Source: an uncultured Planctomycetales bacterium (GTDB lineage Bacteria; Omnitrophota; Gorgyraeia; Zapsychrales; Fredricksoniimonadaceae). Taken from it: a stretch of 64,000 bases of DNA. This document shows positions 48-40,523 of this stretch, one piece after another. The stretch covers positions 84,780 through 148,779 of the forward strand of contig CAZXSE010000001.1 of the NCBI GenBank assembly GCA_964643325.1, in the 5' to 3' direction. The notes under the pieces are model-generated. The model searched no databases. It saw nothing but the letters and a program-made list of their open reading frames with translations, and had not been told where the DNA came from. Made by a program: the position numbers and the translations under genes. The stretch's first letter is position 1, and the number at the start of each line of letters is the position of its first letter.

Positions 48-62
48 AAGCTTCCTTTGTGG

Positions 63-3000: not shown

Positions 3001-3312
3001 TTGGCAAGGACGCCCTGCTCCCAAAGTTCGACCGCCAGGTTCAAGCCCGTCTGCCCGCCCAGCGTCGGCAGGATGGCGTCGGGCCGCTCCTTCGCGATGA
3101 TCTTCTCGAGGAACTCGGCGCTCAACGGTTCGATATAGGTCTTATCCGCGGTCTCGGGATCGGTCATGATCGTGGCCGGATTGGAATTGACCAGGACGAC
3201 CTCGAAACCCTCCTCGCGCAGGGCCTTGCAGGCCTGCGTCCCGGAATAATCGAACTCGCACGCCTGTCCGATCACGATCGGGCCCGAGCCGATGAGCAGG
3301 ATCTTCTTGATA

Positions 3313-3329
<17 letters not shown>
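63..3329 (-). CDS. carB: Carbamoyl-phosphate synthase large subunit
   Basis: 1088-aa ORF with a duplicated ATP-grasp architecture ([18 protein letters not shown] and [18 protein letters not shown]) and an MGS-like C-terminus. It overlaps the carA stop by 17 nt. Confidence 0.97.
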
Positions 3330-4410
<1,081 letters not shown>

Positions 4411-4466
4411 GAGAAAGTATACTTATCTGTGTAAGAAGAGATTACGGGCAGCTTTTGATCCTAATC

Positions 4467-4494
4467 AATATAGCACCACCCGGCCTTTTGTCAA
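4467..4494 (-). promoter_or_regulatory. Sigma70-like promoter for carAB
   Basis: The minus strand reads TTGACA (4494..4489), a 16-nt spacer, then TATATT (4472..4467), about 57 nt upstream of the carA ATG. Confidence 0.45.
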
Positions 4495-4527
4495 CAACGC
4501 ATTACGCCATTTCTCCGTCGCAAAACA

Positions 4528-7106: not shown

Positions 7107-7117
7107 GGGGTCTGGAT

Positions 7118-7633
7118 CTACTTCTTTTCTTCCACCGGCGTTGTCGCCGCAGCCTCGGAGAGCGTCTTGGCCTGCTGCACAAGGACCCCCAACAGGATCG
7201 TGGCGCGTTTTTCTCCGCCTTCATCCTTCTTCTCGCGATAAAGATCAATACTCTTACGCGCGGAAATGATCGCCGGCATCAACTCTCCGGCACTTTCATA
7301 AGCCATGGCAAAAAGATAGTATGTCACAGGATTATCCGGGAATTTTGCGACCGCCAGGTTCAGGACACCCTTGGCCTGCTCGAATTGCTTGAGCCGGATG
7401 AATGTCTCGGCAAGCATGAAATAAGCTTCCGCGTAGTCCGGGGCTGTTTTGATCGCCGTCGCAAAGTTCTGCACGGCATTGACCACTTCCCCCTGCTTGA
7501 GCATGACAACGCCCTGCATCAGAAGCTGGCGCGCCTGTTCATTGGCTGCTGTTGCCGAAGGCGCCTTCTGCCCGCAGCCGGCCAGCATGCCCGCGGCGAC
7601 CACCATCACCATGATACCCAATGCCCTTCTCAT
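7118..7633 (-). CDS. TPR-repeat lipoprotein
   Basis: Signal peptide with the lipobox MLAGC (MRRALGIMVMVVAAGMLAGCGQ), followed by TPR-like helices (AIKTAPDYAEAYFMLAETF...). Confidence 0.75.
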   Translation of the reverse strand: MRRALGIMVMVVAAGMLAGCGQKAPSATAANEQARQLLMQGVVMLKQGEVVNAVQNFATAIKTAPDYAEAYFMLAETFIRLKQFEQAKGVLNLAVAKFPDNPVTYYLFAMAYESAGELMPAIISARKSIDLYREKKDEGGEKRATILLGVLVQQAKTLSEAAATTPVEEKK

Positions 7634-7644
7634 AACACGACTCC

Positions 7645-9081
7645 TTACTTATCCTTGCTGATCAAATATTGATGAACGCTTTCTGCCGCCGTGCGCCCTT
7701 CATGAATGGCCCACACGACAAGTGACTGCCCGCGCGTCATGTCCCCGGCAGTAAAAACCCCTGATACCGTGGTCATCTTACCGGCATCAGCCTTTACATT
7801 ACCACGCATATCAAATTCAACGCCACATTTTTTCAACAGCCCCTCCTGAACGGGCCCCAAAAAACCCATGGCCAGGAAAACAAGGTCGCACTCCACATCG
7901 AATTGCGAACCAGGGACTTCTTTCATCTGCGGACGCCCGGTCGCCGGATCTTTGGACGACCAGTCCAGCCGCACCGCGTGAAGGCGTTCAAGCTTTCCGC
8001 CTGCGCCGGAAAATCCTTTGGTCGCAATGCTGTAATCGCGCCCGCAACCCTCTTCATGCGAGGTCGCCGTGCGGCACACCAGCGCCCAATGCGGCCAGGG
8101 ATTGTCAGCGGCCCTCTCCAGAGGAGGCTTGGGCAAAAGCTCGAATTGTTTAACGGAAATGGCGCCCTGACGGTTGGCGGTCCCGACGCAATCCGCGCCC
8201 GTATCGCCGCCGCCCAATACAACAACGCGCCGGCCCTTGGCATTGATCTGTGCCGACGCATCGATCTTGACGCCCAACAGTTTCCGGGTCTGCTGCGTCA
8301 GGTATTCCATGGCGAAATAAACCCCTTTGAGCTCCCGCCCCGGAACAGCCAGATCGCGCGGCCGCTCAGCGCCGCCGCACAAGACCAGCGCGTCATACTG
8401 CCCGCGCAGCACCTGCGGATCAATGTCCACGCCGACATTAACGCCCGTCTTGAACACAATGCCCTGCGCCTCCATCAATTTAACGCGGCGCTCGACAATG
8501 CTTTTCTCAAGCTTGTAGTTCGGGATCCCCAGCGTCAAAAGCCCGCCGATAAAAGCATTCTTTTCGTAAACCGTGACCTTGTGGCCCTTCCTGTTCAGTT
8601 CGTCCGCGCAGGCCAGCCCCGACGGGCCGGAACCAACGACCGCGACCTTCTTGCCGGAACGGTGCCTGGGCGCCTCATTCTTGGCCAAGCCATCCGCCCA
8701 CGCGCGCTCCGCGACCGACAGCTCGATGTTCTTGATAGTGACCGCGGGATAATGAATAGATAATGTGCAGGAATTTTCGCACGGCGCCGGGCAGACACGC
8801 CCCGTGAATTCAGGAAAATTATTGGTCCGCGCCAGCCGCGCAGCGGCTTCCGCCCACTGCCCCCGGTAAACCAGGTCGTTCCACGACGGAATGATGTTGC
8901 CCAGCGGACATCCCCACTGACAGAAAGGAATGCCGCAATCCATGCAGCGTCCGCCCTGGCGGCGCAACGCCTCCTCGGCCGGCAGCGTGACAAATTCGTC
9001 CCAGTGCCCCAGGCGCCCGGCCACAGGCTCCTTGGCATAGTCCTCACGCGCGTACTTTAAGAACCCCTTGACCTCACCCAT
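7645..9081 (-). CDS. gltD: Glutamate synthase (NADPH) small subunit
   Basis: I place the start at MGEVKGFLKY, 8 nt overlapping the gltB stop. It has a Cys cluster (CMDCGIPFCQWGCPLGN) and the dinucleotide fold VAVVGSGPSGLACADEL. Confidence 0.9.
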   Translation of the reverse strand: MGEVKGFLKYAREDYAKEPVAGRLGHWDEFVTLPAEEALRRQGGRCMDCGIPFCQWGCPLGNIIPSWNDLVYRGQWAEAAARLARTNNFPEFTGRVCPAPCENSCTLSIHYPAVTIKNIELSVAERAWADGLAKNEAPRHRSGKKVAVVGSGPSGLACADELNRKGHKVTVYEKNAFIGGLLTLGIPNYKLEKSIVERRVKLMEAQGIVFKTGVNVGVDIDPQVLRGQYDALVLCGGAERPRDLAVPGRELKGVYFAMEYLTQQTRKLLGVKIDASAQINAKGRRVVVLGGGDTGADCVGTANRQGAISVKQFELLPKPPLERAADNPWPHWALVCRTATSHEEGCGRDYSIATKGFSGAGGKLERLHAVRLDWSSKDPATGRPQMKEVPGSQFDVECDLVFLAMGFLGPVQEGLLKKCGVEFDMRGNVKADAGKMTTVSGVFTAGDMTRGQSLVVWAIHEGRTAAESVHQYLISKDK

Positions 9082-12000
9082 GGATTCCCGGCTCCGATCG
9101 TTCCCCGCCCCCTGCGGCCCGCCTGGCCCGCTCCACAACGGCGCGGTATTCACGCGGATAAACTTTCACGAATTGCGGCAGGACAGCATCCCAGCGCGCA
9201 AGGATATCAGCCGCCACCGTGCTTTGCGTGTACCTGCCGTGCGCGGCGATCATGCTCTTAAGGGCGGCGGCATCCTCCGGATCGACAACCGATACCAGAT
9301 CGACCATGCCTGTATTGCAGCGCGCGGCGAACGCGCCATCCTTATCCAGGACATACGCGATGCCGCCCGACATGCCTGCGCCGAAATTGCGCCCCGTCGG
9401 GCCAAGGACCACGACGCGGCCGCCCGTCATGTATTCGCAGCCGTGATCACCCGTGCCTTCAACGACCGCGTCCACACCGGAGTTGCGCACCGCAAAGCGC
9501 TCACCCGCGACGCCCCGGAAGAACGCCTCGCCGCAAATGCCGCCGTAAAGCACCACGTTCCCGACAATGATATTCGCCTCGGCCTGAAGCGCAGAGCCCT
9601 TGGGCGGACGGACAATGATCCTGCCGCCGGAAAGGCCCTTGCCGACATAATCATTGCAATCTCCCTCGAGCTCGAACGTCACGCCGCGCGACAGGAACGC
9701 GCCGAAACTCTGGCCCGCGCTGCCGCTGAAAGAGACCGTGACCGTTCCCTCAGGCAAACCTGCCATCCCGTACTTCACGGCGATCGCAGAGCTTAACATC
9801 GTCCCGACGGTGCGGTTGACATTGCTGATGTTCATGGCAAACGCCACGGGCTTTTTTTGTTCAAGGGCATCCTTGCAGCGGGACAGGATCTCATTATCAA
9901 GCGCCTTCTCAAGCCCATGTTCCTGCCGCGCGCAGTGGCGCACGGAAATGTGTTTGGGCACATCCGGCTTATGCAGGATATTGGTAAGATCGACCCCTTT
10001 GAGTTTCCAGTGCGCCAGCGCATCCTTCGCCTCGATCATGTCCACGCGGCCGATCAGCTCGTCAAAAGTCCTGAAACCCAGCTCGGCCATGATCGCACGG
10101 ACATCCTCGGCGATGAACATGAAGAAATTGACAATATGCTCCGGCTTGCCGCGGAAGTTCTTCCTCAGTTCCGGATCTTGCGTCGCAATGCCCACGGAGC
10201 AGGCATCCAAATGGCACTTGCGCAGCATGACGCACCCAAGGCACACGAGCGCGATCGTCGCGAACCCGAATTCATCCGCGCCAAGCATGCCGCACAGGAC
10301 AACATCCCTGCCGGTCTTGAGCGTTCCGTCGGTCTGCACACGGATGCGGCCGCGCAGGTCGTTGATGACCAACACCTGCTGCACCTCGGCGATCCCGAGC
10401 TCCATGGGAAGCCCGGCATGCTTAATGGATGTCTGGGGGGATGCGCCCGTGCCGCCCTCATAACCCGAGACCAAGAGATGGTCGGCCTTGCCCTTGGCCA
10501 CGCCCGCGGCAATGGTCCCGACGCCGATCTCGGCAACAAGCTTAACGCTCACATCAGCCCGCGGATTGGCGTTCTTTAAGTCATGGATCAACTGCGCCAG
10601 GTCCTCAATGGAATAAATATCATGATGCGGCGGCGGCGAGATCAGTTGGATGCCGGGCAATGTCCCGCGGGTCGCGGCGATCTCGCGGGTCACCTTATGC
10701 CCCGGAAGCTGCCCGCCCTCGCCGGGCTTGGCGCCCTGGGCCATCTTGATCTGGAGCTGGTCAGCATTGACCAGGTATTCAATATTGACGCCGAAGCGCC
10801 CCTGCGCCACCTGCTTGATACGGCTACGGCGGGTGTCGCCGCCGGGCATGGGCTTGAACCGCTCGGGGTCCTCACCGCCTTCACCCGTATTAGAGAACCC
10901 GCCGAGGCGGTTCATGGCAATGGCAAGCGTCTCATGCGCTTCTTTGGAGATCGACCCATAACTCATCGCGCCCGTCGCGAAACGCCGGGCGATCGCGGCG
11001 GCCGGCTCGACCTCGGAGATCGGGACCGGGCTGCCTTTTTTGAATTTCATGAGCGAACGGATATTCGCGCAAGCCTTGTCATTCTCGTTGACCAGGCGCG
11101 CGTATTTCTCGTAAAGGGCCCTGTCATTGGTCCGTACCGCCTGCTGCAGAGCAGCCACCACATCAGGATTGATCTGGCGGAACTCGCCATCCTTGCGCCA
11201 ATGGTACCAGCCGCCTTCCTCGAGAAGATCGTGCCCGTGCGGCACGTCCGGATACGCCTGCGCGTGACGGCACAGGGCTTCCGCGGCCACCTCGGTGATG
11301 CCGATGCCCCCGATCCTCGACGGAGTTGCCGTGAAATACGACGCCACAAACTCTTCCCCGAGGCCGACCGCCTCAAAGATCTGCGCGCCGCAGTAGGACT
11401 GTATCGTGGCAATGCCCATCTTGGAAATGATCTTGAACAGGCCCTTGCGGATGGACTTGATGTAGTTCTTCTGCGCATGGTCCGCGTCAAGGCCCTGGGC
11501 ATAATGCCCCTTGCGGACCTCATTCTCGACGGTATCAAGAGCCAGATAAGGATTAATGGCATTGGCGCCGTAACCGATCAAGAGCGCGAAATGATGCATC
11601 TCGCGCGCCTCGCCCGTCTCGAGAACGATCGACATCTTCGTGCGTGTGCCCTGACGGATCAGATGATGGTGCAGCCCCGCGCATGCCAGAAGGGCGGGCA
11701 CGGGAACATCCTTCTCGCTGGAAGCCCGGTCGGAAAGGACGAGGATGTTATACCCCTGCGCCATTGCATTATCAGCGCTGACGCACAACGCTTCCATGGC
11801 TTTTGCCAGGCCGTCGTTGCCGTCCGCTTTCTTGAACAGGATCGGCAGGGTCACGGCTTTCAGGCCCCGGCGGTCGACCTGCGCGATCGCGGCAAGCTCC
11901 TGGTTGGAAAGGATGGGCCGCGGCAACCTCAGGCGGCGGGCGTGTTCCGGCGTTTCCGCCAGCAGGTTCCCCTCGGCGCCAAGATAAACATTCTCGGCCA

Positions 12001-13618
12001 TGACCACTTCCTCGCGGATGGCGTCCACCGGCGGGTTCGTGACCTGGGCAAAAAGCTGCTGAAAATAATTATACAAAAGCTGCGGCCGCCCCGAGAGCAC
12101 GGCCACGGGATTGTCCGCGCCCATCGAACCCGTGGCCTCCTCGCCGTTCTCGGCCATGGCCTTAAGGATGATCTTCAGGTCTTCCTGCGTATATCCGAAC
12201 GCGCGCTGGCGCGTCACGATCGTCTTTTCATTGAGCACCGGGACCTTCCTTCCCGACGGAAGGTCTGTAAGGTCCACGATATTCTCTTTCAGCCACCGGC
12301 CATAAGGCTGCTTGCGGGCATAGGAATCCTTGAGCTCTGCATCGTCAATGATGCGGCCCTCGACCGTGTCCACCAAAAACATCTTGCCGGGCTGCAGGCG
12401 CCATTTCGCGGCCACGCGCTCAGGCGCAACGGGAAGCACGCCGGTCTCAGAGGCCATGATGACCAGTCCGTCGGTCGTGACCGTGTACCGCGACGGACGC
12501 AGGCCGTTACGGTCCAGGACCGCGCCGATATAGCGGCCGTCCGTGAACGCGATGCACGCCGGGCCGTCCCACGGCTCCATGAGGCACGCGTGATATTCAT
12601 AGAACGCGCGTTTTTCCGCGCTCATCGTGGTGTCGCCCACCCACGCCTCGGGCACCATCATCATCACCGCGTGCGGCAGGGGCCTGCCCGCCATCACCAA
12701 AAGCTCCAGCGCATTATCAAATGACGCCGAATCGCTCCCGAAGGGGCCGATGAGCGGCTGGACCTTCTTCACATCGCCGCCAAAAAGATCATGCGCCATC
12801 TGTTTCTCGCGCGCGCGCATCCAGTTCAGGTTGCCTCTTAATGTATTGATCTCGCCGTTGTGCGCGAGCATCCTGTAGGGATGCGCCAGCGACCACGTCG
12901 GGAATGTGTTGGTGCTGTAACGGGAATGAACGAGCGCCAGGGCCGAGACCATGTCCGTGTCGGCAAGGTCCTTAAAGAAAGGCCCGAGCTGTTCGGCCAT
13001 GAGCTGCCCTTTATAGACGATCGTGCGCGCGGAAAGGCTGCAAATGTAAAAGAAGCTGCGGTGGTGCAGGGACGATTCATGGACCCTGGTCCAGCAGCGC
13101 TTGCGGATCACGTAAAGCTTGCGTTCGAAGTCCTCACGCGGGGTCGCCGCGCCGCGGCCGATAAAGATCTGCTTGAGCTCGGGCTGGACGGAATGCGCGA
13201 CCCTGCCGACATGGGCATCGTCATGGGGAACGGCGCGCCATCCCAGGAATTTCTGGCCCTCTTCATGGATGATCCGCTCGATCCATTCCTCGACGGTGTT
13301 GCGCGACTGCAATTCCATGGGAAGAAAAACATTGCCGCAGCCGTAATCACCCTCGGGCGGCAGATCGATCCCCTGGGCCCGGGCAACCTTGCGCAGGAAC
13401 GCATCCGGCAACTGCAGCATGATCCCGGCGCCGTCGCCGGTCAGCGGATCGCACCCGCTCGCCCCGCGATGCGCCAGGTTCTCCAGGATCCTGATCCCGT
13501 TGGCAATGATCTCATGGGACTTGCGCCCCTTGATATCAACGACGAAACCGACGCCGCAAGCGTCGTGTTCGAACCGGGGGTCGTACAATCCCTGTTTTGA
13601 CGGTAATCCCGTATGCAT
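9074..13618 (-). CDS. gltB: Glutamate synthase large subunit
   Basis: I place the start at MHTGLPSKQGLYDPRFEHDACGVGFV (the Ntn Cys follows a short propeptide). It has amidotransferase, FMN/Fe-S and C-terminal GXGXG beta-helix regions. The longer ORF start at 13753 would run into the upstream GT2 gene. Confidence 0.95.
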   Translation of the reverse strand: MHTGLPSKQGLYDPRFEHDACGVGFVVDIKGRKSHEIIANGIRILENLAHRGASGCDPLTGDGAGIMLQLPDAFLRKVARAQGIDLPPEGDYGCGNVFLPMELQSRNTVEEWIERIIHEEGQKFLGWRAVPHDDAHVGRVAHSVQPELKQIFIGRGAATPREDFERKLYVIRKRCWTRVHESSLHHRSFFYICSLSARTIVYKGQLMAEQLGPFFKDLADTDMVSALALVHSRYSTNTFPTWSLAHPYRMLAHNGEINTLRGNLNWMRAREKQMAHDLFGGDVKKVQPLIGPFGSDSASFDNALELLVMAGRPLPHAVMMMVPEAWVGDTTMSAEKRAFYEYHACLMEPWDGPACIAFTDGRYIGAVLDRNGLRPSRYTVTTDGLVIMASETGVLPVAPERVAAKWRLQPGKMFLVDTVEGRIIDDAELKDSYARKQPYGRWLKENIVDLTDLPSGRKVPVLNEKTIVTRQRAFGYTQEDLKIILKAMAENGEEATGSMGADNPVAVLSGRPQLLYNYFQQLFAQVTNPPVDAIREEVVMAENVYLGAEGNLLAETPEHARRLRLPRPILSNQELAAIAQVDRRGLKAVTLPILFKKADGNDGLAKAMEALCVSADNAMAQGYNILVLSDRASSEKDVPVPALLACAGLHHHLIRQGTRTKMSIVLETGEAREMHHFALLIGYGANAINPYLALDTVENEVRKGHYAQGLDADHAQKNYIKSIRKGLFKIISKMGIATIQSYCGAQIFEAVGLGEEFVASYFTATPSRIGGIGITEVAAEALCRHAQAYPDVPHGHDLLEEGGWYHWRKDGEFRQINPDVVAALQQAVRTNDRALYEKYARLVNENDKACANIRSLMKFKKGSPVPISEVEPAAAIARRFATGAMSYGSISKEAHETLAIAMNRLGGFSNTGEGGEDPERFKPMPGGDTRRSRIKQVAQGRFGVNIEYLVNADQLQIKMAQGAKPGEGGQLPGHKVTREIAATRGTLPGIQLISPPPHHDIYSIEDLAQLIHDLKNANPRADVSVKLVAEIGVGTIAAGVAKGKADHLLVSGYEGGTGASPQTSIKHAGLPMELGIAEVQQVLVINDLRGRIRVQTDGTLKTGRDVVLCGMLGADEFGFATIALVCLGCVMLRKCHLDACSVGIATQDPELRKNFRGKPEHIVNFFMFIAEDVRAIMAELGFRTFDELIGRVDMIEAKDALAHWKLKGVDLTNILHKPDVPKHISVRHCARQEHGLEKALDNEILSRCKDALEQKKPVAFAMNISNVNRTVGTMLSSAIAVKYGMAGLPEGTVTVSFSGSAGQSFGAFLSRGVTFELEGDCNDYVGKGLSGGRIIVRPPKGSALQAEANIIVGNVVLYGGICGEAFFRGVAGERFAVRNSGVDAVVEGTGDHGCEYMTGGRVVVLGPTGRNFGAGMSGGIAYVLDKDGAFAARCNTGMVDLVSVVDPEDAAALKSMIAAHGRYTQSTVAADILARWDAVLPQFVKVYPREYRAVVERARRAAGGGERSEPGIHG

Positions 13619-13652
13619 GGCCTGTTCTCTGAATTTTATTGATGCCGCGCTC

Positions 13653-14345
13653 TCAAGAAAATATCCGGAACCTGATGATCGCCCAATACATGCCCAGGGC
13701 CTTGGGCCAGTTGATCTTCTTGCCCTCTGCCACGGACCTGGCCTCATAGGCAATGGGGACCTCGACGATGCGAAGCCCCTTGCGGACGAATTTCGCGGTC
13801 ACTTCCGTCTCAAAAGCAAAATGATCCGAAACAATGGTCAGCGCCCTGATATCCGCGGCGCGGCAAAGCTTGAAACACGTATTGATATCCGTCAGCCGCA
13901 CGCCATACAAAAGACGGAAGGTGATGTTGGAAGCAACATTCGCCCAGCGGTTGACCCCCTTCATCCGGCGGATCGTCCCCATGAAGCGCGAGCCGTAAAC
14001 GACATCGGCCGTGCCATCGAGCAAGGGGGCCAAAAGCCGCGGATATTCCGACGGGCTGTATTCCAGGTCCGCGTCCTGCACCAGCATCAGATCGCCTGTC
14101 ATCGCCTCGATGCAACGCTTCAGGGCCGCGGTCTTGCCCCGATTGACCGATTGATCAAAAACCTTGACCTGCGGATCCGGCGCGAGCGCCGCAAGGACCT
14201 GCGCCGTCCTGTCCGTGGACCCGTCGTTGACCACAATGATCTCGCGCTCCATGCCCGCGGGAAGCGCGGCGGCCCGGACAGATGCGATCACGTCGCAAAT
14301 GGTAGCCTCTTCATTGTAGGCCGGGATCAATACAGAAAGCTTCAT
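13653..14345 (-). CDS. Family-2 glycosyltransferase (polyprenyl-phosphate sugar transferase-like)
   Basis: 230 aa. LSVLIPAYNEE...IIVVNDGSTDRT...VQDADLEY is the GT2 DxD-type core. Confidence 0.85.
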   Translation of the reverse strand: MKLSVLIPAYNEEATICDVIASVRAAALPAGMEREIIVVNDGSTDRTAQVLAALAPDPQVKVFDQSVNRGKTAALKRCIEAMTGDLMLVQDADLEYSPSEYPRLLAPLLDGTADVVYGSRFMGTIRRMKGVNRWANVASNITFRLLYGVRLTDINTCFKLCRAADIRALTIVSDHFAFETEVTAKFVRKGLRIVEVPIAYEARSVAEGKKINWPKALGMYWAIIRFRIFS

Positions 14346-14351
14346 GCGTTC

Positions 14352-16034
14352 CTAGGATGCCTTGTAATGGTTGGTCAACGGAAGGCGCCAGTCCTTGCCG
14401 AACGCGCACTTGGATATCTTTACCCCCGGCGGCGCCTGACGGCGCTTGTACTCGCTCTTATCGACGAGCCCCATCACGCGGCGGACGGTCTCTTCAGAGG
14501 CTTTCTTGCCTTTCATTTCTTCCAGAGAACGGTGTTCTTCCACATACCCCGTCAGGATATCATCCAGCACCGGGTACGGCGGCAGGGAATCCTGGTCCTT
14601 CTGGCCAAACCGCAATTCCGCGGACGGCGCGCGCCTGATGATCGTACGCGGGATCACGACGCGCCCGGCCTTCTGGTTCACATAAGCGCACAGATCATAG
14701 ACCCGGGTCTTTAAAATATCCTTGATGACCGCATACCCGCCGGACATATCTCCGTACAGCGTGCAATAGCCGGTCGCCATCTCGCTCTTGTTGCCCGTCG
14801 TCAACAGGAGCCACCCGAACTTGTTGGAGAACGTCATCAGAAGGTTCCCCCTGATGCGCGCCTGCAGGTTCTCCTCGGCAAGGCCGAAAGGCATCCCCTG
14901 GTTATAAGGCTTGAACGCCGCCAGGAACGCCTCAAAAACAGGTTCGATCGGGATCTCGTAGAACGTGATCCCGAGATTGTGCGCCAGCGCGCGCGCATCC
15001 GACTTGGTGTCTTCCGCGTTGAATCGTGTGGGCATGGAAACGGCAACAACGTTCGCCGCGCCGACCGCGTCGCGCGCCACAACAGCCACGAGCGCCGAGT
15101 CAATGCCGCCGCTCAAGCCCACCACGACCTTCTTGAACCCGTTCTTCTGGATATAATCGCGCGTCCCCAGCACCACGGCCGCATAGATCTCCTCGACAAG
15201 CCCCAGCGTTGGCTGATCTTTTTTCACCAGCTTCGGCAGCGCCTTCGGCGCCGGCGCTTCCATCTTAATAACACAGGCCTTGGCCACGCGCTTTTTCACG
15301 GCCGGCACATCGCAAAGCACAAGGTCCTCTTTGAACTGCGCGCCGCGCGCCAGGACTTTTCCCGACGCAGATACAACCATGCTCGCCCCGTCAAAGACCA
15401 ACTCGTCCTGCCCGCCCACCAGATTCACATACCCCACCGGCGCCCCGGTCGTGCGCGCCGCACGCGCGAGCATCTTTTCACGCTCGAGCCGCTTGCCGGC
15501 CTCATAAGGCGAACTGGAAATGTTCAGGATGAGCTTCGCGCCCGCTTTTGCCTGCTGACGAAAGATCCCGTCATCAACCCAGATGTCCTCACAGATGTTC
15601 ACCGCAAAAGGGACGCCGTTATGACTGAACAACTGAACGCCCTTGCCCGGCGTGAAATACCGCTTCTCATCAAAAACGCTATAGTTCGGGAGCGCCTGCT
15701 TGTGATACACGCCAACAACCTTGCCGTTGGCCATCACGGCCGCGGCATTGTAAAGCGCGCCGTCCGGCCCGCGGTCCACGAACCCGACCACAGCCGTGAT
15801 GCCTTTCACGCGCCGGGCAATATCCTCCATGGCCCTGATATTACGGGCAACAAAGTGCTTCTTGAACAGCAGGTCTTCCGGAGGGTAGCCCGTCACAGCC
15901 ATCTCGGGGAACGCCACGATCCCCGCCCCCGCGCGCCTGGCCCTGTCGGCAAAAGCAAGGACCCAGTCACGATTGCTGTCAAGATCGCCGACCGTCGTAT
16001 TGATCTGAGCCAGGGCGATCCGTAGTGTCGTCAT
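14352..16034 (-). CDS. nadE: Glutamine-dependent NAD+ synthetase
   Basis: I place the start at MTTLRIALAQ, preceded by GGAAGGTGG. An N-terminal CN-hydrolase (glutaminase) domain is followed by an NAD synthetase domain with the GLSGGIDSALVA P-loop. Confidence 0.93.
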   Translation of the reverse strand: MTTLRIALAQINTTVGDLDSNRDWVLAFADRARRAGAGIVAFPEMAVTGYPPEDLLFKKHFVARNIRAMEDIARRVKGITAVVGFVDRGPDGALYNAAAVMANGKVVGVYHKQALPNYSVFDEKRYFTPGKGVQLFSHNGVPFAVNICEDIWVDDGIFRQQAKAGAKLILNISSSPYEAGKRLEREKMLARAARTTGAPVGYVNLVGGQDELVFDGASMVVSASGKVLARGAQFKEDLVLCDVPAVKKRVAKACVIKMEAPAPKALPKLVKKDQPTLGLVEEIYAAVVLGTRDYIQKNGFKKVVVGLSGGIDSALVAVVARDAVGAANVVAVSMPTRFNAEDTKSDARALAHNLGITFYEIPIEPVFEAFLAAFKPYNQGMPFGLAEENLQARIRGNLLMTFSNKFGWLLLTTGNKSEMATGYCTLYGDMSGGYAVIKDILKTRVYDLCAYVNQKAGRVVIPRTIIRRAPSAELRFGQKDQDSLPPYPVLDDILTGYVEEHRSLEEMKGKKASEETVRRVMGLVDKSEYKRRQAPPGVKISKCAFGKDWRLPLTNHYKAS

Positions 16035-16059
16035 GCCACCTTCCCGTTGAACCCCTTTA

Positions 16060-18156
16060 TCAATAGAGGAACAACATTTCCGCGTATGTCGGCAACGGCC
16101 ATAATTCAGCCGGCACAAGCCCTTCAAGGGCATCCGCCGCCTTGCGCGCGGCCAGCATTGCGGCTTTCATTTGTTCCGTGTCAGACGCATCGAGCGCGGC
16201 GTCGAGCGCCTTGATGCCCGCGGCCAGCCCGTCGATGAGAACAGACACTTCCGCCAGCGCTTCACGCGCCGTTGCGGCCTTGCCGCCCGCATCCTCGACC
16301 GCTTTCACGGCCGACGCCAAATTGGTCTGATGCTGCAGCGCCGCGGGAAGGATCAGCGTGGCCGCCATGGTCCTTGCGCATTCAGCTTCATAGCTCAGGA
16401 CGCTGTTGTAATTATGCATGTAGATCTCATGACGCGACAGAAGTTCTTTCTGCGTCAGGACCGCGTATTTCGCGAACAGTGTCAGGGCCTTCTGTGTCTC
16501 ATAAGCCTTGAGCGCTTCGGGCGTGGTTTTCATATTCGCAAGCCCGCGCTTTTCCGCTTCCTTATGCCAGGCCTCGGTGTAATTGTCCCCATTGAAAATA
16601 ACGCGCTTGTGCTTCTTGATAATGCCCTGCAAGATGGCCTGCACCGACTTGTTGAAGTCCTTCTTGGCCTTCACATCCGCTTCAAGCTGCGTGCACATTG
16701 CGTCGAACGCTTCCGCTACGATCGTGTTCAGCACCACGTTCGCGGCCGCCGGATTCATGTTCGATCCGAGCGCGCGGAACTCAAACTTATTCCCTGTGAA
16801 CGCAAAAGACGAGGTGCGGTTGCGGTCCGTGGCGTCGCGCGGCAACGTCGGAATAACATCCACGCCGATCGCGATCGTGCCGCCGGACTTGGCACTGGTA
16901 GCACTGCCCTTTTCGATCTGCTCGACAATATCGGCCAGCTGATCGCCCAGGAAGATCGAGATGATCGCGGGCGGAGCCTCGTTGGCGCCCAGGCGGTGAT
17001 CATTGCCGGGCGATGCGACCGACGCGCGCAAGAGGTCCGCGTGCGTATCGACCGCCTTGATGACCGCGCACAAGGTGAACAGGAACTTCGCGTTCTCGTG
17101 CGGATTGGAACCCGGGTGCAGCCAGTTCTTGCCGTCGCAACCGACGATAGACCAGTTGTTATGCTTGCCGGAACCGTTGACCCCCGCAAAAGGCTTTTCA
17201 TGCAGCAGGCATACGAGGCCATGCTTGTCCGCGATCTGCTTCATCAATTCCATGCAGATCAGGTTGTGATCGACCGCCAGATTCAGGCGCTCGTACATGG
17301 GCGCGATCTCGAACTGCGCAGGGGCCACTTCATTATGGCGCGTTTTTGCCGGAGCCCCAAGCCGCCAGAGCGCCTGGTCCAGGTCCTCCATGAATGCCAG
17401 GATCCGCGGACGGATGGCCCCGAAATAATGGTCTTCCATCTGCTGATGGCGCGCCGGCTTGCGGCCGAACAGCGTCCGGCCCGTCTGGATCAGGTCAAGC
17501 CGCTTCTCGTAATACGCCTTGTCGATCAGAAAATATTCCTGTTCCGGCCCGAGCGTAACATACGGCCGTGTAACAGCTTTAAGGCCGAACAATTTCCCGG
17601 CACGGTCCATTTGTTTGGCGAGCGCCGCGGAAGAACGCAACAAGGGCGTCTTCTTGTCCAGCGCTTCCCCATGATAGCCGCAAAAAATGGTCGGGATGCA
17701 CAACGTCGCCCCGTCCTCGCTTTCCTTGATGAACGCGGGGCTCGTCGGGTCCCAGGCCGTATAACCGCGCGCTTCGAACGTGGCGCGCAGCCCGCCGGAC
17801 GGAAATGAGGATGCGTCCGGTTCGCCCTGGATGAGCTCTTTCGCGGAGAATGCCATCTCAACGCCGCCCTGGCCGTCAGGCGAAATGAACGAATCATGCT
17901 TCTCGGCGGTCGAACCGGTGAGCGGCTGGAACCAGTGGCAAAAATGGGTCGCGCCCTTGGACAATGCCCAGGATTTCATGGCCTGCGCCACCTCATCCGC
18001 GATCTTCGGGTCAATAACGCCGCCGTCGTTGATCGTCTTGCTGAGAGAGGCATACGCCTTCGCTGAAAGGTACTTTTTCATGGCCTTGAAACTGAACACA
18101 TTCTCGCCGTACATCGCTTCAACCGCGCTGATGAACTTTGTGGCTGCCTTTGTCAT
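16060..18156 (-). CDS. glnN: Glutamine synthetase type III
   Basis: 698 aa, the GSIII size class, with GVNGSGKHNNWS and other GS catalytic-domain motifs. An AAGGAG SD lies 7 nt upstream of the ATG. Confidence 0.9.
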   Translation of the reverse strand: MTKAATKFISAVEAMYGENVFSFKAMKKYLSAKAYASLSKTINDGGVIDPKIADEVAQAMKSWALSKGATHFCHWFQPLTGSTAEKHDSFISPDGQGGVEMAFSAKELIQGEPDASSFPSGGLRATFEARGYTAWDPTSPAFIKESEDGATLCIPTIFCGYHGEALDKKTPLLRSSAALAKQMDRAGKLFGLKAVTRPYVTLGPEQEYFLIDKAYYEKRLDLIQTGRTLFGRKPARHQQMEDHYFGAIRPRILAFMEDLDQALWRLGAPAKTRHNEVAPAQFEIAPMYERLNLAVDHNLICMELMKQIADKHGLVCLLHEKPFAGVNGSGKHNNWSIVGCDGKNWLHPGSNPHENAKFLFTLCAVIKAVDTHADLLRASVASPGNDHRLGANEAPPAIISIFLGDQLADIVEQIEKGSATSAKSGGTIAIGVDVIPTLPRDATDRNRTSSFAFTGNKFEFRALGSNMNPAAANVVLNTIVAEAFDAMCTQLEADVKAKKDFNKSVQAILQGIIKKHKRVIFNGDNYTEAWHKEAEKRGLANMKTTPEALKAYETQKALTLFAKYAVLTQKELLSRHEIYMHNYNSVLSYEAECARTMAATLILPAALQHQTNLASAVKAVEDAGGKAATAREALAEVSVLIDGLAAGIKALDAALDASDTEQMKAAMLAARKAADALEGLVPAELWPLPTYAEMLFLY

Positions 18157-18218
18157 GTCCTTGCTCCTTGATAGTGCGTATCAGATCTGTTAATGGGATC
18201 ACACCGGTCCCGGGAAGG

Positions 18219-18267
18219 AAAATAAAATAATCCTCTCCCGGAAAAACATCTTTTCTCCAAAAGAGGA
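18219..18267 (-). terminator. Terminator-like (attenuator) hairpin plus U-tract inside the glnN leader
   Basis: Minus-strand RNA: UCCUCUUUUGGAGAAA-[AGAUG]-UUUUUCCGGGAGAGGA (18267..18231; 16 pairs, of which 4 are G.U) followed by UUAUUUUAUUUU (18230..18219). The G.U pairs exist only on the minus-strand transcript. Confidence 0.4.
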
Positions 18268-18315
18268 CGTCATCGCCCTGTCTACCTTATATAAAGGAAG
18301 GCCTCACTGCCTTCC
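18264..18315 (-). promoter_or_regulatory. Candidate ANTAR-target pair of hexaloop hairpins in the glnN leader
   Basis: P1 is GGAAGGC-AGUGAG-GCCUUCC (18315..18296), a 7-bp stem with a hexaloop carrying A1/G4. P2 is AGGGC-GAUGAC-GUCCU (18279..18264), a 5-bp stem with a hexaloop carrying G4. The 3' arm of P2 shares UCCU with the 5' arm of the terminator-like hairpin. Confidence 0.35.
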
Positions 18316-18327
18316 AAAACTCGCAAA

Positions 18328-18356
18328 AGTATATCGCGGTGAAAATCCTTTGTCAA
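18328..18356 (-). promoter_or_regulatory. Near-consensus sigma70 promoter for glnN
   Basis: The minus strand reads TTGACA (18356..18351), a 17-nt spacer, then TATACT (18333..18328). Confidence 0.55.
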
Positions 18357-18389
18357 TCACAAAATTCCGGCGATTTTACCCTCTTTTTC

Positions 18390-19610
18390 CTATGTTTTCT
18401 GGATATCGGCCATCAAAAGCACTGACTCCGCGATCTCTTTCATGGTCTTGCAGGTATCCATGCTCTTTTTATGGATCAGCTTGTAGGCCGCATCCTCCGA
18501 AAGGCCCTGCATCTTCATGAGCGCCCCTTTGGCGCGCTCGACCAGCTTGCGCGTTTCAAGGGCTTCCCTGGCCTTGAGCGCCTCTTCCATCAGTTTTGTA
18601 TTCTCAACCGCCACGGCCGCCTGATTGGCCACAAGCTGGAGGGCGCCGATCTCGTCCGCTGTGAAAGAATGAGGCTCTTTCGTATAAACATTGATCACTC
18701 CCAGGGCCCTGTCCTTGACGATCATCGGCACCGCCAGCATGGACGTCAGCCCCTCCCTGATCGCCAGGTCCCGATAAAAATACCTGTTCTCCCGGCGTAC
18801 ATCTTCGATGGCCACGGCCTTGCGGGTCTTGATCACATCACCCATCAGGCTGGCATCGACCTTCAGATTGGGCTTTTTCTTGTAGTCATCGCTCAGGCTC
18901 TGCGTGGCCTTGATGACAAGTTCCTGGCCCTTGGGATCGAGCAGCATGATCGAACAGACCTTGGAGTTCAGCATTTCCGCGATAACGACCACAATAAGGC
19001 TCAGGATCTCGTCGAGGTATTTCTGGGACGTGACCGTCTGACTGACCTTGACGAGCGTGTCGAACTGCAGGGCCTTTGCGTGGGTCTCTTTATAAAGCCG
19101 GGCATGTTCAATAACGCTGCCCACCTGACGGCCGATCATCTCAAGGAGCGTGATGGCATTAGTTGGATGCTCCCGGACCTTCTTGTGCTGAAGATTGATA
19201 ACGCCGATGGCTTTGCCCTTATAAACGATCGGCACAGCCACGAACGCCTCATACTTGTCCTCGGGCAGGACATCGAACGCCTTGAACCGCGGATCAGCAT
19301 AGGCGTTCTCCTGGATAATGACCGGCTTATTGTTCTTCGCGGCCCAGCCCGTCAACCCTTCGCCAACCTTAAGAAGAATGCGGCCCAGTTCTTTCTTGTG
19401 CGGGGTCTTGGACGCGCGCAAGACCAGATGCCTTTTACCCTCATCAAAAAGATAGATGAAGACCGAATCCGCGTGCGTGATGTCGGTCACGGCCCGGACG
19501 ATCTCGTACAGAATGGTATCCAGTTCAAGCTCAGAGGTCGTGATGTCAACGACCTTGCGCAAAACTTCTAATTCATTGGCAGAAGAGAACCGCGATCTGT
19601 TCCTGACCAT
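18390..19610 (-). CDS. GAF-GAF-ANTAR RNA-binding antiterminator-type regulator
   Basis: 406 aa. Two GAF-like modules (VFIYLFDEGKRHLVLRASK... and CSIMLLDPKGQELVIKATQ...) are followed by a C-terminal ANTAR helix bundle (LETRKLVERAKGALMKMQGLSEDAAYKLIHKKSMD). The SD GGAAGGTGG sits directly upstream. Confidence 0.85.
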   Translation of the reverse strand: MVRNRSRFSSANELEVLRKVVDITTSELELDTILYEIVRAVTDITHADSVFIYLFDEGKRHLVLRASKTPHKKELGRILLKVGEGLTGWAAKNNKPVIIQENAYADPRFKAFDVLPEDKYEAFVAVPIVYKGKAIGVINLQHKKVREHPTNAITLLEMIGRQVGSVIEHARLYKETHAKALQFDTLVKVSQTVTSQKYLDEILSLIVVVIAEMLNSKVCSIMLLDPKGQELVIKATQSLSDDYKKKPNLKVDASLMGDVIKTRKAVAIEDVRRENRYFYRDLAIREGLTSMLAVPMIVKDRALGVINVYTKEPHSFTADEIGALQLVANQAAVAVENTKLMEEALKAREALETRKLVERAKGALMKMQGLSEDAAYKLIHKKSMDTCKTMKEIAESVLLMADIQKT

Positions 19611-19623
19611 ACCACCTTCCTTG

Positions 19624-20142
19624 TTATTGCGCGTGCTGTATCAGGACGCGCAGGGTCCTTGCGCCCACCAGCCCGTCGGGCTTCAATCCATTCGCCGCCT
19701 GAAATGCCTTGAGCGCCGACCGGGTCCTGCTGCCCGGACGGCCGTCGATCTTGCCGGGATCATATCCCGCCTGCACCAGGGCCCGCTGCAGGGCCGCTCC
19801 ATCCAGCGCGTCATTGCTGACCAAGGGGCTTTGAATATAATACTGTACCTTTTCCCAAGTCATTTTGTCAACAAAGCGTGTGACCTCGATGCCCTCATCC
19901 GCCTGGAACTTTGCCACGGCATCGCGCGTTCCCGCGCCGAATTTGCCGTCAGGAATGCCGGACTGATATCCCAAAAGCCGCAAATACTTCTGCAGCTGTT
20001 CCACGCGGGCATTGTACTGGTCGAACGCGACCTCGCCGAGTATCTGGCGCTCTTCTCCGCCGGGCTTGTGCAAAAGCCCGTAGATCCTGTCGCAACCCGC
20101 CAGCACGGGAAGAAGAATTAAAAGGAAAAGAATGCCCCGCAT
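19624..20142 (-). CDS. Lipoprotein with two peptidoglycan-binding (PG_binding_1-like) repeats
   Basis: I place the start at MRGILFLLILLPVLAGCD (lipobox LAGC). Two repeats follow: LQKYLRLLGYQSGIPDGKFGAGTRDAVAKFQ and LQRALVQAGYDPGKIDGRPGSRTRSALKAFQ. The longer ORF-track N-terminus has no support. Confidence 0.75.
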   Translation of the reverse strand: MRGILFLLILLPVLAGCDRIYGLLHKPGGEERQILGEVAFDQYNARVEQLQKYLRLLGYQSGIPDGKFGAGTRDAVAKFQADEGIEVTRFVDKMTWEKVQYYIQSPLVSNDALDGAALQRALVQAGYDPGKIDGRPGSRTRSALKAFQAANGLKPDGLVGARTLRVLIQHAQ

Positions 20143-20199
20143 AAGTATATGATTATAATAACAAAAGCTGAAAGCTGTAAAAATTCTTGGGATGTTGCC

Positions 20200-21969: not shown

Positions 21970-21978
21970 CGGGCTTTT
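21951..21978. terminator. Bidirectional intrinsic terminator between convergent genes
   Basis: AAAAAAA-GCCCGTC-AAAT-GACGGGC-TTTT. The minus-strand reading gives a 7-bp GC stem followed by U7. The plus-strand stop codon lies inside the hairpin. Confidence 0.7.
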
Positions 21979-21998
21979 GATGATCGACCATCTTATTT

Positions 21999-37739: not shown

Positions 37740-37982
37740 TTACAAACCAAACTCGGCACGGACCAGGCGCTCCGCCTCGAACCAGTCGGCAAAGTCATTG
37801 CCGTGCTGCCCGCCGCGCTTGACATAAAGCTCATGCGCCTTGAACGCCACGCGGCCGTAGAACTCGTCCGGATGCATGGTCTTTTTCGCCGCCCTTGCCG
37901 GCTGCGTCCCGAAAGACGATGCCTGAACGACATCCTTTTTGGGCGCTGATGTTGTTTTTGCTGCACGATTTAATTTTGCCAT
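37740..37982 (-). CDS. Small (80 aa) basic DUF2934-like protein
   Basis: Perfect SD: GAAGGAGGGGTATC-ATG. The C-terminal motif AFKAHELYVKRGGQHGNDFADWFEAERLV matches the DUF2934 pattern (ERAYxLxxxRG...DxxDWxxAE). The longer ORF-track form overlaps the glgP 3' end and is rejected. Confidence 0.6.
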   Translation of the reverse strand: MAKLNRAAKTTSAPKKDVVQASSFGTQPARAAKKTMHPDEFYGRVAFKAHELYVKRGGQHGNDFADWFEAERLVRAEFGL

Positions 37983-38016: not shown

Positions 38017-40455
38017 TTATACTTTCCAGATGTCCCGGGCGTATTCCCGGATGGTCCGGTCGCTCGAGAACGGGCCCGCCTTGGCCACGTTGATGATCGA
38101 GGCGCGCGTCCACGCATCCCTGTCCTGATACAACGTTGAAACATCCGCCTGCGCGCGGCAATAATCCTCGAAATCCGCGCACAACATGAAAAAGTCGCCG
38201 CCATAGATCGTATTGAGCAGAGGATCAAAGAGCCCCGGCTGTCCGGGCGAAAAGAAATCATTCTCCATGAGCCGGAAGATCTCGCGCAGCTCGGGCGACT
38301 TCTTGATGAAATCGCGCGGCTTATATCCCTGCGCGCGCATGGTCAGGACCTGGTCGGCTTTCAATCCGAAAATGAAAATATCTTTCCCGCCGAGGCTCTG
38401 GGCCATCTCGATATTGGCGCCGTCATAGGTCCCGATGGTCAGCGCGCCGTTGAGCATGAACTTCATATTGCCCGTGCCGGAAGCTTCCATGCCGGCGGTC
38501 GAGATCTGCTCGGAAAGGTCCGCCGCGGGAATGATCTTCTCGGCAAGCGACACGCGGTAGTTCTCCATGAACAACAGCCGCAGTTTGTCGCGCACGGCGC
38601 GGTCCTGGTTGAGGACATTGCCCACGCTGGTCAGGAACTTAATAACGAGCTTGGCCAGATGATACCCGGGCGCTGCCTTGCCGCCGATGATGAAGGTGCG
38701 CGGCTGGATGAAAGCCCGCGGATCGTTCTTCACCCTAAGATACTGGGACATGATGTACAGCCCGAACAGGAACTGGCGCTTGTACTCGTGCAGGCGCTTG
38801 ACCTGAACGTCAAAGAGCGAATCACGATTGACCACAATATCCGTGGTCTTAAGGATGTGCTCCGCCAGCGCGTTCTTGTTGGCCTGCTTGACCGCGCGCC
38901 AGCGGTCCATGAATTCTTTATTATCCTTGTGCGCCATCAGCTTCTCAAGCTCGCTGAGTTCCGTCACCCACTTATCGCCGATCGTCGCAGTGATAAGCTC
39001 GGAAAGTTTCGGATTGGCCTTGAGCAGCCAGCGCCGCGGCGTGATGCCGTTGGTCTTGTTGTTAAAGCGCTCCGGCCACATCTCATAAAAGTCGCGGAAC
39101 AGCTGCGACGTCAGAAGTTCGGAATGCAGGGCGGAAACACCGTTGATCGAAAAGCTCCCGATGATAGCGATATGCGCCATGCGCACCCTCTTGGGATCGC
39201 CCTCCTGGATGATGGACATGCGGCCCAGGCGCGCGCTGTCCCCGGGGAATTTCTTCGCGACCTCCTCGAGGAACCTGCTGTTCAGTTCAAAAGCGATCTC
39301 CAGATGCCGCGGCAGGACCTTACCCATCAGCTCGACCGTCCAGCACTCCAGCGCTTCCGGCATGATGGTGTGGTTCGTGTAGGCAAAGGTCTGGCGCGTC
39401 ACATCCCAGGCCTCGTTCCAGTCAAAACCCTCCTGGTCGATCAACACCCGCATCAGCTCCAGCACCGCCAGCGTCGGATGCGTATCGTTAAGCTGAATGC
39501 AAACTTTCTCGTGCAGCCGGTGCATGTCATTCTTGTCAGCCCGGTGGCGGCGGATGATATCAGCAATGGAGGCCGATGTGAAGAAGTGTTCCTGCTTAAG
39601 CCTGAGCTCCTTGCCCTGGCTCACATTGTCATTGGGATAAAGGACCTTCGAAATGCTCTCGGAAAAGATCTTCTGCTGGACCGCGTGCTCATAGTCCCCG
39701 TGATTAAAGTAATCAAAATCAAATTCGTCGTTCGCGCGCGCCGACCAAAGCCGCAGCGTATTGACCACATCGTTCTTGTAGCCGGGGATCGGAACATCGT
39801 AAGGCATGGCAACGACCGTCTCGGCGCCGACCCAGCGCGCACCGAACTGCGCCGACGGATCGATGTGGCCGTAAAAATTCACCTTGACCTGATATTCAGC
39901 GCGCGGGATCTCCCAGGGATTGCCGTTACGCATCCACTCGTCGGGTAATTCGACCTGCCAGCCATCCTTGATCTTCTGATTGAAAATACCGTAGTCATAA
40001 CGGATCCCGTAGCCGTGCGCGGGAATGCCGAGGGTGGCCATGGAATCCAGAAAACACGCGGCCAGACGCCCCAAGCCGCCGTTGCCAAGGCCCGCGTCAA
40101 GCTCCTGCTCGCGGATCTCTTCAAGATTAATGTCAAGTTCACGCATGGCAACCGCGACATCCTTCTCGGTCCCCAGGTTGAACATATAATTCCCGAGCAA
40201 CCGTCCGATCAGGAATTCCATGGACAGATAATAAACACGGCGTTTGCCCTGCTGATGGTACGCGGTCTGGGTCTTCATCCAGCGGCCCACGATGCGATGC
40301 CGTACGGCAAGCGCCAGAGCATGAAAATTGTCAAGGGATGTGGCCGTTTGGGCGTTCTTGGCCAAAGAAAACGTGCGGATGTCCTGAAAAGATGCCTGGA
40401 TCTCTTCTTTCCCCAGGTCCTTGTTCGTACCCTGCGTATCAGTTGGTTTGAACAT
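38017..40455 (-). CDS. glgP: Glycogen/maltodextrin phosphorylase
   Basis: It has the PLP-Lys motif EASGTGNMKFMLNGALTIGTYDGANIE. I prefer the start at MFKPTD (GGGGAG lies 5 nt upstream) over ATG 40491. Confidence 0.93.
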   Translation of the reverse strand: MFKPTDTQGTNKDLGKEEIQASFQDIRTFSLAKNAQTATSLDNFHALALAVRHRIVGRWMKTQTAYHQQGKRRVYYLSMEFLIGRLLGNYMFNLGTEKDVAVAMRELDINLEEIREQELDAGLGNGGLGRLAACFLDSMATLGIPAHGYGIRYDYGIFNQKIKDGWQVELPDEWMRNGNPWEIPRAEYQVKVNFYGHIDPSAQFGARWVGAETVVAMPYDVPIPGYKNDVVNTLRLWSARANDEFDFDYFNHGDYEHAVQQKIFSESISKVLYPNDNVSQGKELRLKQEHFFTSASIADIIRRHRADKNDMHRLHEKVCIQLNDTHPTLAVLELMRVLIDQEGFDWNEAWDVTRQTFAYTNHTIMPEALECWTVELMGKVLPRHLEIAFELNSRFLEEVAKKFPGDSARLGRMSIIQEGDPKRVRMAHIAIIGSFSINGVSALHSELLTSQLFRDFYEMWPERFNNKTNGITPRRWLLKANPKLSELITATIGDKWVTELSELEKLMAHKDNKEFMDRWRAVKQANKNALAEHILKTTDIVVNRDSLFDVQVKRLHEYKRQFLFGLYIMSQYLRVKNDPRAFIQPRTFIIGGKAAPGYHLAKLVIKFLTSVGNVLNQDRAVRDKLRLLFMENYRVSLAEKIIPAADLSEQISTAGMEASGTGNMKFMLNGALTIGTYDGANIEMAQSLGGKDIFIFGLKADQVLTMRAQGYKPRDFIKKSPELREIFRLMENDFFSPGQPGLFDPLLNTIYGGDFFMLCADFEDYCRAQADVSTLYQDRDAWTRASIINVAKAGPFSSDRTIREYARDIWKV

Positions 40456-40523
40456 ACGGCTCCCCTGAACTGATTTCGAGTGATAAAGCATTGATCAAAA
40501 ACAAGTTACATCTTTGAGTTAGA

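Follow-up and report, generated by a model that had tools for sequence, protein, structure and literature searches.

What controls glnN, the gene of a type III glutamine synthetase, when the gene directly in front of it encodes a candidate sensor with an RNA-binding output domain? The question is raised by a 64,000-nt stretch of DNA (contig CAZXSE010000001.1, hereafter the window) from an uncultured bacterium of the Omnitrophota, in which 233 nt of the minus strand separate glnN (ATG at 18156) from the stop codon of a gene for a protein with two GAF domains and a C-terminal ANTAR domain. The original prediction, made from the letters alone, read this spacer as a leader in which two hexaloop hairpins compete with a terminator under control of the ANTAR protein. 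Comparison with 11 orthologous glnN leaders and with about 88 related hexaloop–terminator units beside orthologous GAF-GAF-ANTAR genes supports that reading, and we conclude with a probability of roughly 0.8 that the spacer is an ANTAR-type transcription attenuator of glnN and probably of the genes packed behind it.

The promoter, the hairpins P1 and P2, the terminator with its U-tract, the ribosome-binding site (RBS), glnN and the regulator gene were all recovered where they had been proposed to lie (Table 1; all leader elements are on the minus strand). The long hairpin had been counted as having 16 pairs; it is present, with 17 pairs once the basal G.U is included, and none of 200 dinucleotide shuffles matched its stability. 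Its G.U pairs make it specific to the minus-strand RNA, as had been argued, because the complementary plus strand folds to just −9.8 kcal/mol versus −21.5 kcal/mol. The pentamer GUCCU (18268-18264) serves both as the 3′ arm of P2 and as the first 5 nt of the 5′ arm of the terminator, and the two structures are mutually exclusive. From about +1 to the U-tract, the fold that combines P1 with the terminator (−34.1 kcal/mol) is more stable than the one that combines P1 with P2 (−18.2 kcal/mol), and the unassisted RNA is thus expected to end as the terminator form. In a transcript truncated immediately ahead of the terminator 3′ arm, P1 plus P2 is the minimum free energy (MFE) structure, which would give a protein a co-transcriptional opportunity to capture P2. 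The 3′ arm of the terminator can indeed also pair with UCCUUCCCGG, as had been proposed, at −17.0 kcal/mol and with 1 of 300 shuffles equally good. The resulting hairpin (18243..18208) joins that arm to UCCUUCCCGGGA past the U-tract; among 12 leaders (the window and its 11 orthologs) a complement of this kind is present in just the window, L001, L004 and L010, and its transcription comes after the termination decision.

With Rfam 15, the best match within 18157-18389 had E = 2.7, the presence of an ANTAR-target model in Rfam not being established. When 17900-18700 was scanned at E ≤ 10, nothing above chance level came up: the matches were to mir-611 (E = 0.27, within the regulator coding sequence, CDS), to His_leader, to an archaeal sRNA and to BTnc231. 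No match to a glutamine riboswitch or another known cis-acting RNA appeared in the scan at that threshold.

To place the leader in an evolutionary context, species-representative genomes were scanned with the regulator protein, yielding 70 loci, 68 of them with orthologs at 60–83% identity. Nearly all ortholog loci came from metagenome-assembled genomes (MAGs) of Candidatus Omnitrophota, some being filed under other bin labels, and in 11 loci glnN directly follows the regulator gene, as it does in the window. In the spacers, −35 and −10 hexamers were readable in 11 of 11 orthologous leaders; the MAFFT alignment of the spacers (A1) misplaces L012. Ten of the 11 have an unchanged P2 core, GGGC-NNUGNN-GUCC, the exception being L010 with CGGC; loop position 4 is G in the window and in all orthologs, and GUCC is common to P2 and the terminator in every one of them. 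The terminator is variable in sequence and conserved in pairing: across the 12 leaders 94% of cells are paired, against 48–63% in slid controls, and 5 of 17 pairs show compensatory changes on both sides. At the position of P1, too, a hairpin is kept in the orthologs with differing stem sequences, 5 of its 7 pairs changing on both sides, so that the terminator and P1 stems both covary. A P1 hexaloop of the A..G type is found in the window and in L001, L002, L003 and L004; L065 has perhaps a weak AAUGAA and L010 has GGUGAC.

A covariance model of the P1-linker-P2 arrangement (R1) was then built from leaders of other genes in other genomes, with neither the window nor the direct orthologs of its glnN leader among them. 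It rests on 17 units, mostly from leaders of ammonium transporter (amt) genes, in alignment A3, which is the MAFFT alignment A2 minus three misaligned sequences. Searched against both strands of the window with filters off, R1 gave a single significant match on the minus strand, spanning 18313..18264 with 22.4 bits and E = 5e-4, versus a runner-up within gltB at 10.8 bits and E = 0.5, which argues that the arrangement upstream of glnN is beyond chance. Across the loci, 73 matches at E ≤ 0.1 fell on the regulator strand and 0 on the other, many of them outside the training set. The P2 stem (GGRC/GUCC) is nearly invariant and therefore contributes little covariation, just a G-U/A-U alternation at one pair.

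The leader of glnN is one member of a family of such units. The pattern GG[GA]C-[AG]NNGNN-G[TC]CC matched the regulator strand of the 70 loci (579,581 nt) 104 times and the opposite strand twice, and for 87 of the 104 RNAfold predicted a terminator whose 5′ arm starts in the GUCC arm. Among 88 units, the window included, loop position 1 is A in 74 and G in 14 (16%) and position 5 is A in 75, G at position 4 being fixed by the search pattern. A promoter of the type seen in the window precedes 55 of the 88, and 26 have an A..G hexaloop hairpin upstream, corresponding to P1, versus 5.0 expected from shuffles; in selected units the stem-to-stem linker spans 4–24 nt. Behind the units lie ammonium transporter genes, type I glutamine synthetase (glnA) and type III glutamine synthetase (glnN), and further a Gcw_chp outer-membrane protein, a DUF2934 protein of 71 aa (which comes first after the unit at L024:5327, L025:5351 and L033:2606) and, at three loci, the regulator itself. 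A unit occurs no more than 650 nt past the regulator stop in at least 41 of 67 loci; others are remote from the regulator, for example about 2.5 kb downstream before glnN or glnA. Units directly upstream of the regulator gene (L046:3875, L053:1757 and 1847, L056:510) suggest putative positive autoregulation in some lineages. Tandem arrays of two or three units per leader were seen mostly before ammonium transporter genes (Table 1).

The regulator itself carries the features expected of a sensor with an ANTAR output. Pfam GAF_2 matched two stretches (4e-44), and the ANTAR domain PF03861 scored 70.5 bits (E 1e-19), the cut-off being 27.3, and is alignable to those of Rv1626, NasR and EutV; it is the sole ANTAR domain in the window. 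Residues R142, K143, K149, E160, Y164 and M172 of EutV (PDB 6wsh) correspond to R354, K355, K361, E372, Y376 and M384, all of them identical. As regards the input, GAF2 was closest to the GAF domain of NifA (TIGR01817, 7e-28), a domain responsive to 2-oxoglutarate. GAF1 had its best match in the GAF domain of PtsP/EI-Ntr (PDB 3ci6, E = 2.8e-18; NCBIfam PRK11061, 5e-35), whose ligand is glutamine (PMC4848567). In EutV, R142, K149, E160, Y164 and M172 read the flipped loop G4 and plug the loop (PMC8934654). Judged from the two GAF resemblances, nitrogen status is most likely the input of the regulator. Thousands of relatives exist in databases, labelled only "GAF domain-containing protein" or "signal transduction protein with GAF and PtsI domain" (JGI).

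As for whether the regulator binds the RNA, which way and to what ligand it responds and how far its control reaches, we infer the following course of events. Transcription would start a few nucleotides past TATACT, and P1 and P2 would be made and folded first. Left unheld, P2 would lose its GUCCU 3′ arm to the far more stable 17-bp terminator, and polymerase would stop at the U-tract, with termination at 18219-18230, leaving the genes OFF by default. Were the GAF-GAF-ANTAR protein active, its dimeric ANTAR domains would bind the hexaloops, with G4 flipping onto the conserved Tyr and P2 becoming locked; the base of the terminator would then be blocked, and polymerase would read into glnN-nadE-GT2-gltBD. 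The two GAF domains would act as the sensor, with low glutamine and/or high 2-oxoglutarate, that is, nitrogen limitation, turning the switch ON.

Several observations weigh against ANTAR-controlled antitermination at this leader. The original prediction had itself voiced two reservations, the first concerning the P2 loop, which in the window does begin with G. Position 1 is A in 11 of 11 orthologous leaders, making the G a window-specific substitution, and A1 has been shown to be important for EutV and NasR, whose tests required it (PMC3369931). RNAfold moreover closes G1 with C6, which turns the hexaloop into a tetraloop and might make P2 a weaker site in the window; 14 of the 88 family units nevertheless share the G. 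The other reservation concerned the 16-nt linker, which is longer than the 5–12 nt of eut leaders, where control by EutV suffered from a linker of 14 nt (PMC3369931). It is normal, however, by comparison with the 15–17 nt of the closest orthologs, and the curation of ANTAR RNAs accepts linkers of 2–25 nt (PMC8164766); because the long linker is conserved in the orthologs, we infer that the window family tolerates it. Thus, both reservations largely dissolve. Apart from these, the A..G signature of P1 is missing in 5 of the 11 orthologs (L006-8, L012 and L014, which have other loops or no clear P1), and the P1 pairing percentage in A3 is partly built in, because its sequences were picked for forming a P1 hairpin. 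In seven loci (L015:7428, L021:7405, L025:7798, L035:7992, L043:5016, L045:8364 and L047:8779) glnN follows a gene for PII (GlnB/K-like) and has no unit, with a plain TTGACA-type promoter in six and, in L047, a position directly behind PII; control of glnN by a hexaloop–terminator unit is therefore common, not universal. On the protein side, N173, R175 and R177 of EutV, which contact the RNA backbone from the α7–α8 loop, are replaced by D385, C387 and T389, although this loop is also variable in proven ANTAR proteins (D, R, T in Rv1626; D, N, R in NasR). Finally, since GAF domains cross-match widely, the resemblance to PtsP and NifA suggests rather than fixes the ligand.

Might the hairpin instead be a plain, unregulated terminator that ends the regulator transcript or insulates glnN, with the hexaloop hairpins incidental? 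No clear terminator lies between the stop codon of the regulator and the −35 box, and the hairpin is indeed the first that regulator transcripts would meet. However, a conserved promoter stands upstream of it while the promoter scan found none between it and glnN, the P2 core is held nearly invariant in the orthologs with GUCC always in common with the terminator, units also lie far from any regulator gene, for example about 2.5 kb downstream, and the strand bias is 104:2, all of which makes a plain terminator unlikely. The least unlikely of the alternatives grants that the attenuator is real and assigns it to another factor, such as an ANTAR response regulator encoded elsewhere or a PII-dependent partner, the GAF-GAF-ANTAR protein being a co-regulated neighbour. 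The visible genome amounts to 64 kb, ANTAR hexaloops are alike across systems and the site of Geobacter GnfR is much alike, all of which speaks for such a factor; yet the first unit directly follows the regulator gene in at least 41 of 67 loci, 73 of 73 R1 matches share the regulator strand, the window holds neither another ANTAR gene nor a PII gene, and the units before the regulator gene in three loci fit autoregulation.

Two further explanations would keep the hairpins and change what they do. Action on translation or on the stability of the mRNA, which has been proposed for ANTAR RNAs of mycobacteria, could draw on the frequent overlap of actinobacterial ANTAR RNAs with start sites (PMC8164766) and on the hairpin at 18243..18208, which might act on the mature mRNA. 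P2, however, overlaps a strong terminator, the RBS lies about 95 nt further on, and a terminator overlap is likewise seen for 87 of the 104 hairpins in the family, so that we consider post-transcriptional control very unlikely. Ribosome-mediated attenuation through a leader peptide is hardly credible. A 24-codon open reading frame (ORF; 18273..18199, minus strand) does begin with an AUG in the loop of P2 and extends across the terminator, a similar ORF was seen by eye in L001, and there is a weak likeness to the Rfam His_leader (16.9 bits, E = 4.2). This score is far under the gathering score of 49, the ORF has neither a conserved RBS nor a run of nitrogen-related codons, and most family loops (AAAGAA, ACAGAA, AGCGAA, AUCGAA) have no AUG; on these grounds leader-peptide attenuation was rejected, and the ORF is probably a side effect of the AAUGA-type consensus of the loop.

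How far would read-through extend? As the original prediction had it, glnN is a type III glutamine synthetase gene, followed by nadE, a family-2 glycosyltransferase (GT2) gene, gltB and gltD, identities borne out by Pfam and NCBIfam. Read in the sequence, the glnN-nadE, nadE-GT2 and GT2-gltB gaps measure 25, 6 and about 35 nt, the gltB-gltD junction being taken from the ORF list alone, and in a scan of 13000-22500 the minus strand of glnN held just one weak terminator-like site with a 5-bp stem. Because the gaps are short and glnN holds nothing stronger than that stem, read-through is taken to reach gltBD, and the five genes are likely co-transcribed as one operon under the leader.

Table 1. 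Positions of the leader elements, regulator domains and operon genes in the window, and of tandem and short-class units at orthologous loci (L handles).
Feature	Position	Strand	Remarks
Regulator gene	19610..18390	−	406 aa; stop TAG 18392-18390; directly upstream of the glnN leader
GAF1	residues ~10-171		regulator protein
GAF2	residues ~199-336		regulator protein
ANTAR	residues 346-398		regulator protein
Promoter TTGACA-N17-TATACT	−35 18356-18351; −10 18333-18328	−	sigma-70-type; 11/12 consensus positions (promoter scan)
P1 hairpin GGAAGGC/AGUGAG/GCCUUCC	18315-18296	−	7 bp; hexaloop with A1 and G4; −12.6 kcal/mol
P1-P2 linker	18295-18280	−	16 nt, from sequence
P2 hairpin AGGGC/GAUGAC/GUCCU	18279-18264	−	5 bp; hexaloop with G1 and G4; −7.4 kcal/mol with the G1-C6 pair added by RNAfold
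Intrinsic terminator	18268-18230	−	17 bp including basal G.U; −21.5 kcal/mol, z = −4.7; also in terminator scan
U-tract UAUUUUAUUUU	18229-18219	−	9/11 bases U; directly 3′ of terminator stem
Alternative hairpin	18243..18208	−	terminator 3′ arm with UCCUUCCCGGGA; −17.0 kcal/mol
RBS AAGGAG	18169-18164	−	7 nt upstream of glnN AUG
glnN, type III glutamine synthetase	18156..16060	−	Pfam GSIII_N 3e-77, Gln-synt_C, Gln-synt_C-ter
nadE, glutamine-dependent NAD synthetase	16034..14352	−	Pfam/NCBIfam
GT2, family-2 glycosyltransferase	14345..13653	−	Pfam/NCBIfam
gltB	about 13618..9074	−	Pfam/NCBIfam
gltD	..7645	−	Pfam/NCBIfam
Tandem units	L019:5323/5383/5451; L047:6791/6844/6904; L028:5279/5356; L030:2729/2801; L036-L038 and L042 ~5360-5450; L067:8292/8368		
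Short-class units	L011:7528, L016:7717, L017:7709, L018:7346, L024:5256, L025:5278, L028:5279, L030:2729, L033:2532, L034:8243, L039:7367, L044:6789, L047:6791, L058:7813, L067:5249, others		

The putative operon is part of a long same-strand cluster (63-19610, minus strand) that contains several glutamine-using or glutamine-making enzymes and in which gltD is followed by a tetratricopeptide repeat (TPR) lipoprotein gene, lnt, a gene for a 389-aa protein without a Pfam match, carA and carB. No further convincing attenuator was found in the window by a generic scan for hexaloops with terminators, by the P2 pattern with up to 2 mismatches or by R1 with filters off, and no amt, type I glutamine synthetase or PII gene is present there as another family target. 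A DUF2934 gene (37982..37740, minus strand) does occur, directly after a glycogen phosphorylase gene (40491..38017) and with no attenuator in front. Elsewhere in the window, a 1240-aa ORF (25721-21999, minus strand) combines UTP-glucose-1-phosphate uridylyltransferase and nucleoside diphosphate kinase domains and ends at a strong terminator (21978-21953).

The family units fall into two classes according to how far past the −10 box the terminator-overlapping hairpin lies. In the short class, comprising 17 units, this distance is 13–18 nt, which leaves no space for an upstream P1. In the long class it is 25–81 nt, mostly 30–61 and 49 nt in the window, and a P1 with a C-G-closed [A/G]NNGNN loop is usually present. 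A second hexaloop, C-[A/G]NNGNN-G, sits at the apex of the terminator in 7 of 16 short-leader units versus 11 of 64 other units; in loosely defined control sites consisting of a hairpin plus T-tract, it was found in 5 of 513 and 20 of 734, or about 1–3%. Judged by these counts, the apex hexaloop suggests a candidate alternative dual-hexaloop layout. In this connection the minimal ANTAR site has been redefined as one hexaloop to which a single dimer binds (PMC8934654), which fits the single-hairpin units of the family. A broader proposal joins two halves, to which together we would give well under even odds: the GAF-GAF-ANTAR protein may be the master regulator of nitrogen in much of the phylum, reading glutamine and/or 2-oxoglutarate directly and controlling amt, glnA and glnN purely via RNA attenuators, and many of its sites may have a non-canonical layout, with the terminator-overlapping hexaloop at the 5′ end of the transcript, a second hexaloop in the terminator apex and no P1.

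Nitrogen genes under ANTAR antitermination have a precedent in Geobacter GnfR and in the predictions of 2012, and the known mechanism is unchanged by the present locus. Three things are new: a sensor architecture tied to a regulon, the phylum, and type III glutamine synthetase as a target. GAF-ANTAR proteins form a large catalogued class, for which the family supplies a defined RNA site, coherent targets (ammonium transporters and both types of glutamine synthetase) and a short list of candidate ligands, rendering it testable in vitro. In the literature searched, papers of 2012, 2020 and 2025 give GAF-ANTAR as an architecture and none describes a characterised GAF-ANTAR protein, and searches for Omnitrophota with ANTAR and for GAF-ANTAR nitrogen regulators returned nothing relevant. 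If the proposal of a master regulator holds, no GAF-ANTAR protein before it would have had a signal and a regulon assigned to it. Nitrogen assimilation in these Omnitrophota genomes appears to be run largely by sigma-70-type promoters and attenuators, and attenuator-based nitrogen control of this kind would help to interpret Omnitrophota metatranscriptomes.

Covariance matches at genes for glutamine synthetase (25 mentions), ammonium transporters (18) and PII were listed by Ramesh et al. 2012 in their supplementary file 6, among them an Alkaliphilus metalliredigens glutamine synthetase gene beside an ANTAR gene and at least 13 sites in Desulfotomaculum acetoxidans (PMC3369931); these predictions concern Firmicutes and Proteobacteria and tie no sensor type to the sites, and they are without Omnitrophota, type III glutamine synthetase or GAF-GAF proteins. 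NasR, acting on the nasF leader of Klebsiella oxytoca, is similarly a one-component fusion of a sensor to an ANTAR domain, encoded beside its target operon and controlling nitrogen assimilation by antitermination at hexaloops, but its NIT domain binds nitrate or nitrite and its target is nitrate assimilation, in contrast to GAF-GAF and glutamine synthetase in the window. With EutV and the eut leaders of Enterococcus faecalis the locus shares dual hexaloops with A1 and G4, a P2 that shares bases with the 5′ arm of the terminator (PMC3369931, PMC8934654) and the base-contacting residues; it differs in having neither the REC input nor the ethanolamine genes of that system, in its longer linker and the G1 of P2, and in the D, C, T of its α7–α8 loop as opposed to N, R, R. 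PtsP/EI-Ntr offers a glutamine-binding GAF domain (PMC4848567) that is the best match of GAF1, yet its output is a phosphotransferase, whereas that of the window protein is an RNA-binding domain.

The closest experimentally studied analogue is GnfK/GnfR of Geobacter sulfurreducens, which likewise works by antitermination at the leaders of nitrogen genes (nifH, nifEN and nifX, as well as glnK and amtB; PMC2995071). GnfR binds CAGGCAANGGCGCC, which overlaps the nifH, glnK and amtB terminators (PMC2995071); with its short GC stem and an AANGGC hexaloop overlapping the terminator, this site is very like CAGGGCGAUGACGUCC in the window. Its input, in contrast, is a phosphorylated receiver within a two-component cascade under RpoN, where the window protein has two GAF domains, and its targets centre on nitrogen fixation, while those of the window family are amt, glnA and glnN with sigma-70-type promoters.

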